Sequence record: PV682554.1
Origin: Escherichia phage 92CQ
Direction: 5' to 3' (one strand)
Length of the DNA: 64,000 nt
The notes beneath the pieces are model-generated. The model was not told the DNA's origin and searched no databases. It saw only the letters and a program-made list of their open reading frames with translations. This document shows, in pieces, positions 39,067 to 39,178 of this stretch; within the stretch, counting starts at the first letter, position 1, and each line of letters opens with the position of its first letter. Both the position numbers and the translations under genes were made by a program.

Positions 39067-39178
39067 ATGATAATCATTCTCATTTGTAAATGAGAATCAT
39101 TATCATTTAATTATGTAAGTGATAATCATTCTCAGTAAGAGAATGAGAATCGTTAGCAAATGAGAATTTTTCTCATTT
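39067..39178. promoter_or_regulatory. cluster of Fur-box-like palindromes (40-bp near-perfect palindrome plus two further sites)
   Basis: TGATAATCATTCTCA (39068-39082, 39120-39134) and TGAGAATCATTATCA (39091-39105), each one mismatch from the 7-1-7 Fur core TGATAATnATTATCA; palindrome AAATGAGAAtttTTCTCATTT at 39158-39178. Confidence 0.5.

Follow-up and report, generated by a model that had tools for sequence, protein, structure and literature searches.

Phage-borne sites for nutrient-sensing factors of the host have precedents: stx1 is Fur-regulated, and cyanophages carry PhoB or NtcA sites. On lambdoid prophages, a Fur box is located upstream of sitABCD (PMC6969025), and overlapping sites 6 bp apart are a published hallmark of Fur clusters (PMC2189734). 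Repeats and palindromes are also found in the injection-stop region (Repeat Region 3) of phage T5; Davison's analysis of this region covered the repeats, the palindromes and the DnaA boxes, and Fur was never mentioned. Here, we describe arrays of Fur-box-like dyads in Escherichia phage 92CQ (sequence record PV682554.1), from which a stretch of 64,000 nt was analysed, hereafter called the window. The dyads are concentrated in two non-coding regions, hub 1 (39066-39177) and hub 2 (49545-51050), and are most suitably classed with Fur-type operators, in a setting that is new, namely conserved arrays in the non-coding hubs and at the termini of virulent phages. In the precedents of sitABCD, stx1 and the cyanophages, there is one site per identifiable cargo or metabolic gene, whereas here the sites form multi-copy arrays in gene-free hubs and at virulent-phage termini.

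The repeat unit of hub 1 is a 19-bp dyad, AATGA(G/T)AATnATT(C/A)TCATT, which is present in five copies starting at 39066, 39089, 39118, 39142 (degenerate) and 39159 (boxes A to E, Table 1), spaced 23-41 bp apart in the array (29 bp in relatives). Parts of this array had been picked out in an earlier note on the same DNA, and its structural claims proved accurate. Three 15-mers, at 39068, 39091 and 39120, had been described as one base away from the Fur-box core TGATAATNATTATCA, and each indeed carries a single mismatch; the first two had been said to form a near-perfect 40-bp palindrome, the 19-nt arms of which (39067-39085 and 39088-39106) are 95% complementary; and the further palindrome reported at 39158-39178, AAATGAGAATTTTTCTCATTT, is present and turned out to be a copy of the motif in its own right. 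The core TGATAATNATTATCA is matched with at most two mismatches at 8 positions of the window, compared with an expectation of 1.07, and this number was attained in none of 100 shuffles.

To grade the sites, scores for the phage motif are given out of 18 and scores for the Fur consensus out of 19, with every position scored against GATAATGATAATCATTATC. The hub 1 sites reach 15-16/19 against the Fur consensus and have partners offset by 6 bp (pairs at 39063/39069, 39086/39092 and 39115/39121). For calibration, a 25-kb stretch of the ent/fep locus of E. coli K-12 was scored identically; two operators with known footprints there, fepD-entS and fepB-entC, also reach 15-16/19, and the phage sites of both hubs together, at 15-17/19, are thus at the level of footprinted operators. 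Box B includes AATGAGAATCATTAT, in which 15 bp coincide exactly with the core of the iucA (aerobactin) operator; the sequence of this core was confirmed at 100% identity immediately upstream of iucA in E. coli plasmids. With the enterobacterial Fur boxes of iucA P1, fepB-entC and fepD-entS, the phage sites therefore share the 19-bp dyad, the score range of 15-17/19, the hexamer-based overlaps at a 6-bp offset and the GAGAAT variant of the half-site. The array as a whole gave no meaningful blastn match in 5,426 E. coli genomes, by which a captured host promoter was ruled out as its origin.

The GAGAAT variant was followed further in bacteria. A scan for the exact GAGAAT-type dyad AATGAGAATNATTCTCATT, using one genome per species, returned at least 120 loci, and 20 of the first 40 flanking open reading frames (ORFs), taken unselected, have iron functions. 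Membrane and transport proteins among them are five TonB-dependent receptors, FeoB, FTR1, an Fe2+ transporter, ZnuA and Fe3+-binding proteins; the regulators comprise two Fur genes, two iron-type extracytoplasmic function (ECF) sigma factors and an AraC/periplasmic-binding-protein regulator (Peripla_BP_2); and the remainder are a PiuC-like oxygenase, a rubrerythrin, a siderophore-type esterase and a DUF3325 protein. Because the dyad flanks iron genes at this frequency, the GAGAAT form is a normal Fur-regulon operator, and judged by sequence, the class to which the phage boxes belong is the Fur operator class of bacteria.

The sites are not confined to the window. Escherichia phage KKE7M (Stephanstirmvirinae, Justusliebigvirus) is 100% identical to the window over 38600-39500, where phi92-like phages show 97-98% identity; over the whole window the identity to KKE7M is ~98%, so that the two genomes are not the same, and the window phage is a Justusliebigvirus. 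In the 148.8-kb genome of KKE7M, 10 positions score at least 15/19, compared with ~1.2 in Markov-simulated genomes, and 7 of these 10 strong sites are located within the two non-coding hubs.

Hub 1 was compared in 10 phages of two subfamilies with hosts of seven genera, and the order of its elements is identical in all of them. Along the minus strand, a sigma-70-like promoter (P1) comes first and is followed by a conserved element, in most phages then by a box of the form GTAAA-N5-GTAAA, next by P2, which is also sigma-70-like, and by a GC-rich element; between one and five dyads come after this, and three direct repeats of 70-100 bp close the series. The first dyad copy (box E in the window) directly follows the GC-rich element in all 10 phages, and the copies are often exactly 29 bp apart. 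In Phapecoctavirus and Vequintavirinae, motif and position have been kept while the surrounding DNA diverged. Over 34 sites, the half-site profile reads (A/G)AATGA(G>T)AAT.

The array sits within a gene-poor gap of 1.5 kb (38627-40158), which is bounded by a YbiA-like gene and by the following gene on the plus strand. The sole ORF annotated in relatives within this gap is an 88-codon gene on the minus strand (39441-39707, here ORF88), and no plus-strand ORF starts downstream of the array before 40159. The observation of the earlier note that no gene begins directly downstream thus stands for proteins, as far as plus-strand ORFs are concerned; the boxes are, however, part of a non-coding transcription hub that is conserved. 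Not noticed in the earlier note were the recurrence of the motif at 49585, 49643, 50534 and 50729, the position of the array downstream of conserved minus-strand promoters of the sigma-70-like type, and the conservation of the entire hub in two phage subfamilies.

Hub 2 contains boxes at 49585, 49643, 50534 and 50729, and its two best boxes are held by a segment that matches the direct terminal repeat annotated in phage UAB_1. Several related records open near 50458-50800, and the physical genome ends probably lie at this position. The boundaries of the repeat are conserved, with AGCCTA on the left and CGCGTTA|AGCAC on the right. Terminal-repeat box 1 contains a perfect core, whereas terminal-repeat box 2 is composite, with 18/18 at 50729 and 14-15/19 at 50720, 50726 and 50732. 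Phapecoctavirus anhysbys keeps both terminal-repeat boxes, the IHF-like site between them and the boundary sequences, while the intervening DNA has diverged. Sigma-70 promoters occur in hub 2 at chance level. Elsewhere in hub 2, a 124-bp element at 50016-50139 is ~80% conserved in Phapecoctavirus, unlike its surroundings, and contains a long dyad, TTAGCAGCCTATGCCGGACACATAGGCGGCTAA.

The same motif is present in phages unrelated to 92CQ. An exact scan of IMG/VR detected it in many T5-like genomes including T5 itself, where it is duplicated in both terminal repeats. The T5 elements annotated as 'direct repeat C copies 1-4' and 'palindromes E-I' (AY587007, 9468-9637) are this motif, with copies scoring 18/18 at 9577 (AAATGAGAATCATTATCATTT) and 17/18 at 9612, and within the injection-stop region the T5 array has the 7.9% nick and DnaA boxes as its neighbours. 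In the searched literature these T5 elements are described only as repeats and palindromes and not as Fur boxes; no report was found that ties these phage repeats to Fur, the one match for Fur boxes together with phages was about sitABCD on lambdoid prophages, the combination of 'Fur box' and 'phage T5' returned nothing relevant, and neither did a search on non-coding regions of Vequintavirinae. Next to the T5 array and the DnaA boxes, 'palindrome D' (TACTGTATAAATATACAGTA; AY587007, 9330-9349; L090:3453-3472) is a near-consensus LexA (SOS) box. From its sequence, the injection-stop region of T5 seems to be an assembly of high-affinity operators for regulators of the host.

Beyond the identical motif, hub 1 and the T5 region have in common an arrayed arrangement (with 35-bp spacing in T5), a large untranslated region, an array followed by a block of direct repeats, and a location where a terminal block of small early genes, ~8% of the genome, has its inner edge. 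The neighbours of the T5 array, namely the DnaA boxes, the 7.9% nick and palindrome D with its resemblance to a LexA box, were not found in the hubs of the window. A further difference is that the T5 terminal repeat measures 10 kb and contains the array, whereas the repeat of the window phage measures 343 bp and hub 1 lies outside it. The window phage has no homologue of any ORF in the T5 terminal repeat. Hub 1 is ~11.7 kb away from the inferred right end at 50800, which amounts to ~7.9% of the ~148-kb genome; this is also the fraction transferred in the first step by T5, and the agreement may be a coincidence.

In 120 viral loci, the vicinity of a seed site, up to 300 bp away, is enriched 29-fold in additional strong sites, and distances of 29 and 35 bp are preferred. 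Some uncultured IMG/VR contigs (L040:14690-14819, L044:6500-6777 and L119:40-340; GC content ~0.52-0.54) carry terminal runs of (GAGAAT)n/(ATTCTC)n beside full Fur-type boxes; no relatives of these contigs were found among GenBank phages. In another contig (L078:3600-3740; GC content 0.64), three Fur-type boxes, all with ATTCTC after them, precede a gene for a VHML-like large terminase by ~0.7-1 kb, which suggests that such arrays also occur near the packaging regions of temperate myovirus-like elements.

Three possible roles had been put forward in the earlier note, namely iron-responsive control through host Fur, a decoy that titrates Fur, and operators of a phage-encoded regulator that merely resemble Fur sites. 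Genuine Fur-type operators are now favoured because of the operator-grade scores, the identity to iucA, the occurrence of the GAGAAT form near iron genes, the sharing of the motif by unrelated phages and the lack of a phage Fur; the lookalike is weakened, and control in cis and titration are not separable by sequence. Searches of the phage with tblastn and phmmer detected no phage-encoded Fur or Zur below E = 0.1, and a tblastn search with Fur against 50,697 phage records had no rV5-like phage among its matches. Since phages that are unrelated, but infect Fur-bearing hosts, have the motif in common, a shared host factor is the simplest explanation. Our preferred reading, to which we give slightly less than an even chance, is therefore that the palindromes are genuine Fur-type operators bound by metal-loaded Fur dimers of the host and that the array makes transcription of the hub iron-dependent. 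Fur as the ligand in vivo and the effect of its binding are what we infer. Besides control of sigma-70 non-coding transcription in cis, or a roadblock to it, and titration of Fur, binding might have an architectural function at the termini.

According to this proposal, the conserved set would comprise ~8-9 Fur-type sites per unit genome (10-11 per virion DNA) in the two gene-free hubs, with hub 1 placed between the minus-strand sigma-70 promoters P1/P2 and the block of three direct repeats. Host Fur would nucleate on the high-affinity boxes and then spread across the adjacent AT-rich DNA. The resulting nucleoprotein block could tie transcription by host polymerase across and out of the non-coding regions to the iron status of the cell. 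The transcription affected might be read-through from P1/P2, that of a weak promoter pair in the 40-bp palindrome and that of a third promoter, P3, in Vequintavirinae, and the block would also act on transcription out of the terminal repeat.

Several observations weigh against host Fur acting at these sites in a familiar manner. In contrast to enterobacterial Fur boxes, the phage sites appear to control no iron-related or other protein gene, are located in the non-coding hub and the terminal repeat of a virulent phage, and are arrayed at 23-41 bp without overlapping a strong -35/-10 pair. None of them clearly overlaps a strong promoter that serves a protein gene, and the promoter-like hexamers in the 40-bp palindrome are no more than weak, with 9/12 matches per strand. 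Counted from the start of P2, the hub 1 boxes lie downstream at ~+55 to +170, and where Vequintavirinae have a single dyad, 16-18 bp separate the end of the box from the -35 hexamer of P3 downstream of it; both are non-classical positions for Fur. The regular spacing of 29 or 35 bp is iteron-like and not known for Fur regulons. Half-site position -4 prefers G in the phages (43 G compared with 19 T), whereas the E. coli consensus has T; given the bacterial GAGAAT-type operators, this preference appears to be no obstacle to Fur. Finally, the phages grow in iron-replete laboratory media, and any Fur-repressed function would therefore be non-essential.

The spacing and the preference for G are also what could be expected if a different protein, phage-encoded or another host factor, used the dyads as iterons or operators in replication initiation, in the recognition of ends during packaging or in the control of phage transcription, which we regard as unlikely. 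The regular 29-bp arrays beside AT-rich direct repeats and promoters have an origin-like layout, as in iteron-type origins, and the succession of box, IHF-like site and box near the genome end resembles lambda cosB, in which R sites are arranged around the IHF site I1. The phages favour GAGAAT over GATAAT, and a conserved small gene, ORF88, lies within the hub. However, the motif occurs in unrelated phage families without a detectable common candidate protein in the regions compared, and the GAGAAT type is that of a bacterial Fur-regulon operator. ORF88 has no match to a DNA-binding fold and is absent from the loci of SSE121, CR8, Mydo, pEa55 and T5-like phages, in which the box is nonetheless retained. 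For replication iterons in particular, the hub shows no sign of an origin in the GC skew, which shifts only at the transcription switch near 34 kb, and the motif is found at three separate loci including the terminal repeat rather than at one. Despite phased repeats and AT-rich flanks, the sites thus do not qualify as origin iterons, with multiple loci, no skew inflection and no initiator gene identified, and they do not fit an adjacent phage repressor either, as no gene for a cognate DNA-binding protein was found to co-occur with them. Compared with lambda cosB and iterons, the repeated site appears to be of the host-Fur type instead of the type recognised by a cognate phage protein, it is present at several loci per genome, and no adjacent initiator or small-terminase gene was identified.

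Nearly as plausible as the preferred block of transcription, if still unlikely, is a decoy, in which the boxes do bind Fur and the role is exerted in trans. With ~10 sites per genome and hundreds of genome copies, Fur would be titrated and iron uptake and RyhB of the host derepressed, and phage enzymes, for example the ribonucleotide reductases of classes Ia and III, would thereby be supplied with iron. In the Fur titration assay of Stojiljkovic from 1994, multicopy Fur boxes reportedly derepress the regulon in this manner. Many high-affinity sites without a protein gene to control are consistent with such a sink, as are the pure hexamer runs of (GAGAAT)n in some viral contigs, and KKE7M encodes a ribonucleotide reductase large subunit, NrdD and a glutaredoxin. 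A decoy needs no strict positions, yet box E invariably comes directly after the GC-rich element, and the IHF-like site of the terminal repeat invariably lies between two boxes; nor does it need a phasing of 29 or 35 bp, and titration would take effect late only, after replication.

Extending the preferred reading of Fur-type operators to T5 leads to a wider proposal, which we consider rather improbable: arrays of Fur operators may be a shared and unrecognised part of the untranslated terminal and injection-stop regions of unrelated virulent enterobacterial phages, where Fur would act in DNA entry, end handling or early non-coding transcription, with hub 1 as the positional counterpart of the T5 injection-stop signal (iss).

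A role at the RNA level, as hairpins in P1/P2 transcripts that serve as terminators, processing sites or protein-binding stems, is very improbable: the array region is predicted to be transcribed from conserved promoters and would fold strongly (-40 kcal/mol, z = -8.1), but any DNA palindrome trivially does so, the stems are AU-rich and lack the GC-rich stem and U-tract of a terminator (none was called in 39060-39180), an Rfam search of 38000-41000 with E up to 1 gave no match, the copies in the terminal repeat and in T5 have no common transcript context, and 14 of the 34 sites have T in one half and G in the other at the variable position, an uncompensated asymmetry that mispairs in a hairpin while leaving the half-site consensus intact and that therefore favours a dimeric DNA-binding protein.

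The coordinates of the boxes and of the elements surrounding them are collected in Table 1.

Table 1 Fur-type boxes, promoters, conserved elements and repeats of hubs 1 and 2, with positions in the window.
Feature	Position	Strand	Description
Three tandem direct repeats	38825..39045		~70 bp each; blocks TATTTAAAGTTTTT and GAAAATGAAAAGTTCAA; far side of the Fur-type array
Fur-type box A	39066..39084		TATGATAATCATTCTCATT; left arm of the 40-bp palindrome; 17/18 phage motif, 15/19 Fur consensus
Fur-type box B	39089..39107		AATGAGAATCATTATCATT; right arm of the 40-bp palindrome; 18/18 and 16/19
Fur-type box C	39118..39136		AGTGATAATCATTCTCAGT; 16/18 and 15/19; 29 bp from box B
Degenerate box D	39142..39160		AATGAGAATCGTTAGCAAA; 14/18; position 39139 scores 15/19
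Fur-type box E	39159..39177		AATGAGAATTTTTCTCATT; 17/18; alignment A1, columns 282-300
GC-rich conserved element	39186..39232	-	Invariant loop-like core GAGACAAACACC; just downstream of P2; alignment A1; RNAalifold closing helix, columns 224-274
P2, sigma-70-like	39240..39267	-	TTGCTT, 16-nt spacer, TATTCT; hexamer position kept in 10 phages, spacers diverge
Highly conserved non-coding element	39281..39407	-	Downstream of P1; ~84% identity across subfamilies (distant blastn)
CpxR-consensus-like box	39283..39297	-	GTAAA-N5-GTAAA, exact match GTAAAGAAATGTAAA; upstream of P2; conserved in 7/10 phages
P1, sigma-70-like	39410..39438	-	TTGACA, 17-nt spacer, TATACT; 11/12 matches; hexamer position kept in 10 phages
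ORF88	39441..39707	-	Small all-alpha protein (phrog_19316); only minus-strand gene of the block
Two Fur-type boxes, hub 2 start	49585..49661		49585 and 49643, 58 bp apart; 17/18 and 15/18; anhysbys counterpart L019:1489
Match to the direct terminal repeat annotated in UAB_1	50458..50800		97.4% identity over 343 bp
Terminal-repeat box 1	50534..50552		Perfect core TGATAATCATTATCA, 0 mismatches; 17/19; ~85 bp inside the left boundary; anhysbys L019:2316
IHF-consensus-like site	50627..50639	-	Between both terminal-repeat boxes; conserved in anhysbys (alignment A2)
Terminal-repeat box 2	50720..50750		GATAATGCAAATGATAATAATTCTCATTGAT; three overlapping sites at 6-bp offsets; ~62 bp inside the right boundary; anhysbys L019:2495

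The two position-conserved host-type promoters, the ~84% conserved element and the CpxR-like box together suggest a conserved early non-coding transcription unit. The conserved element is shared between Stephanstirmvirinae and Vequintavirinae and extends to 39159; in distant blastn searches the region 39159-39407 was found in Vequintavirinae of Salmonella, Cronobacter, Proteus, Erwinia, Serratia and Klebsiella, and it is annotated nowhere. CpxR-type matches number 2 in the window, compared with 0.375 expected. A structured RNA was considered for 39296-39403 and dropped: the minimum free energy is no better than that of shuffled sequences (z = +0.5), RNAalifold gave no covariation gain, and there was no Rfam match. 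A possible 5' pseudoknot in the conserved element (CGCC/GGCG, with CCCC/GGGG changed to CCAA/TTGG) shows a single class of compensatory change only.

The spacer of P1 doubles as a terminator-like hairpin for ORF88, the model of which is confident and all-alpha; no Pfam family and no significant structural neighbour were found for this protein. The repeat blocks on the far side of the array were detected only at hub 1 and nowhere else in the window, and a dispersed phage promoter motif was therefore rejected for them; in Vequintavirinae, three repeats occupy the same place with a different sequence (CTCGATCGAG and A6T6 tracts). Just past hub 1, three strong promoters on the plus strand (39818, 39995 and 40079) drive small genes toward the right end. 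At 24564/24565 of the window, the equivalent position in KKE7M leaps from 2068 to 134877 of its record, and ~16 kb of KKE7M, including nrdD, are absent from the window phage or placed elsewhere in it.

Apart from Fur, the hub merits attention as a possible early non-coding transcription unit in phages that are used therapeutically. If host Fur binds the arrays, conserved non-coding DNA would connect large virulent coliphages to the host's central regulator of iron, or would enable them to manipulate it. The repeats at the T5 first-step-transfer stop, known since the 1980s but not assigned a function, would then have a concrete candidate ligand, and the pause in T5 injection would become testable with fur mutants and iron chelation. 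Phage development would, if this is true, be linked to the availability of iron in the gut.
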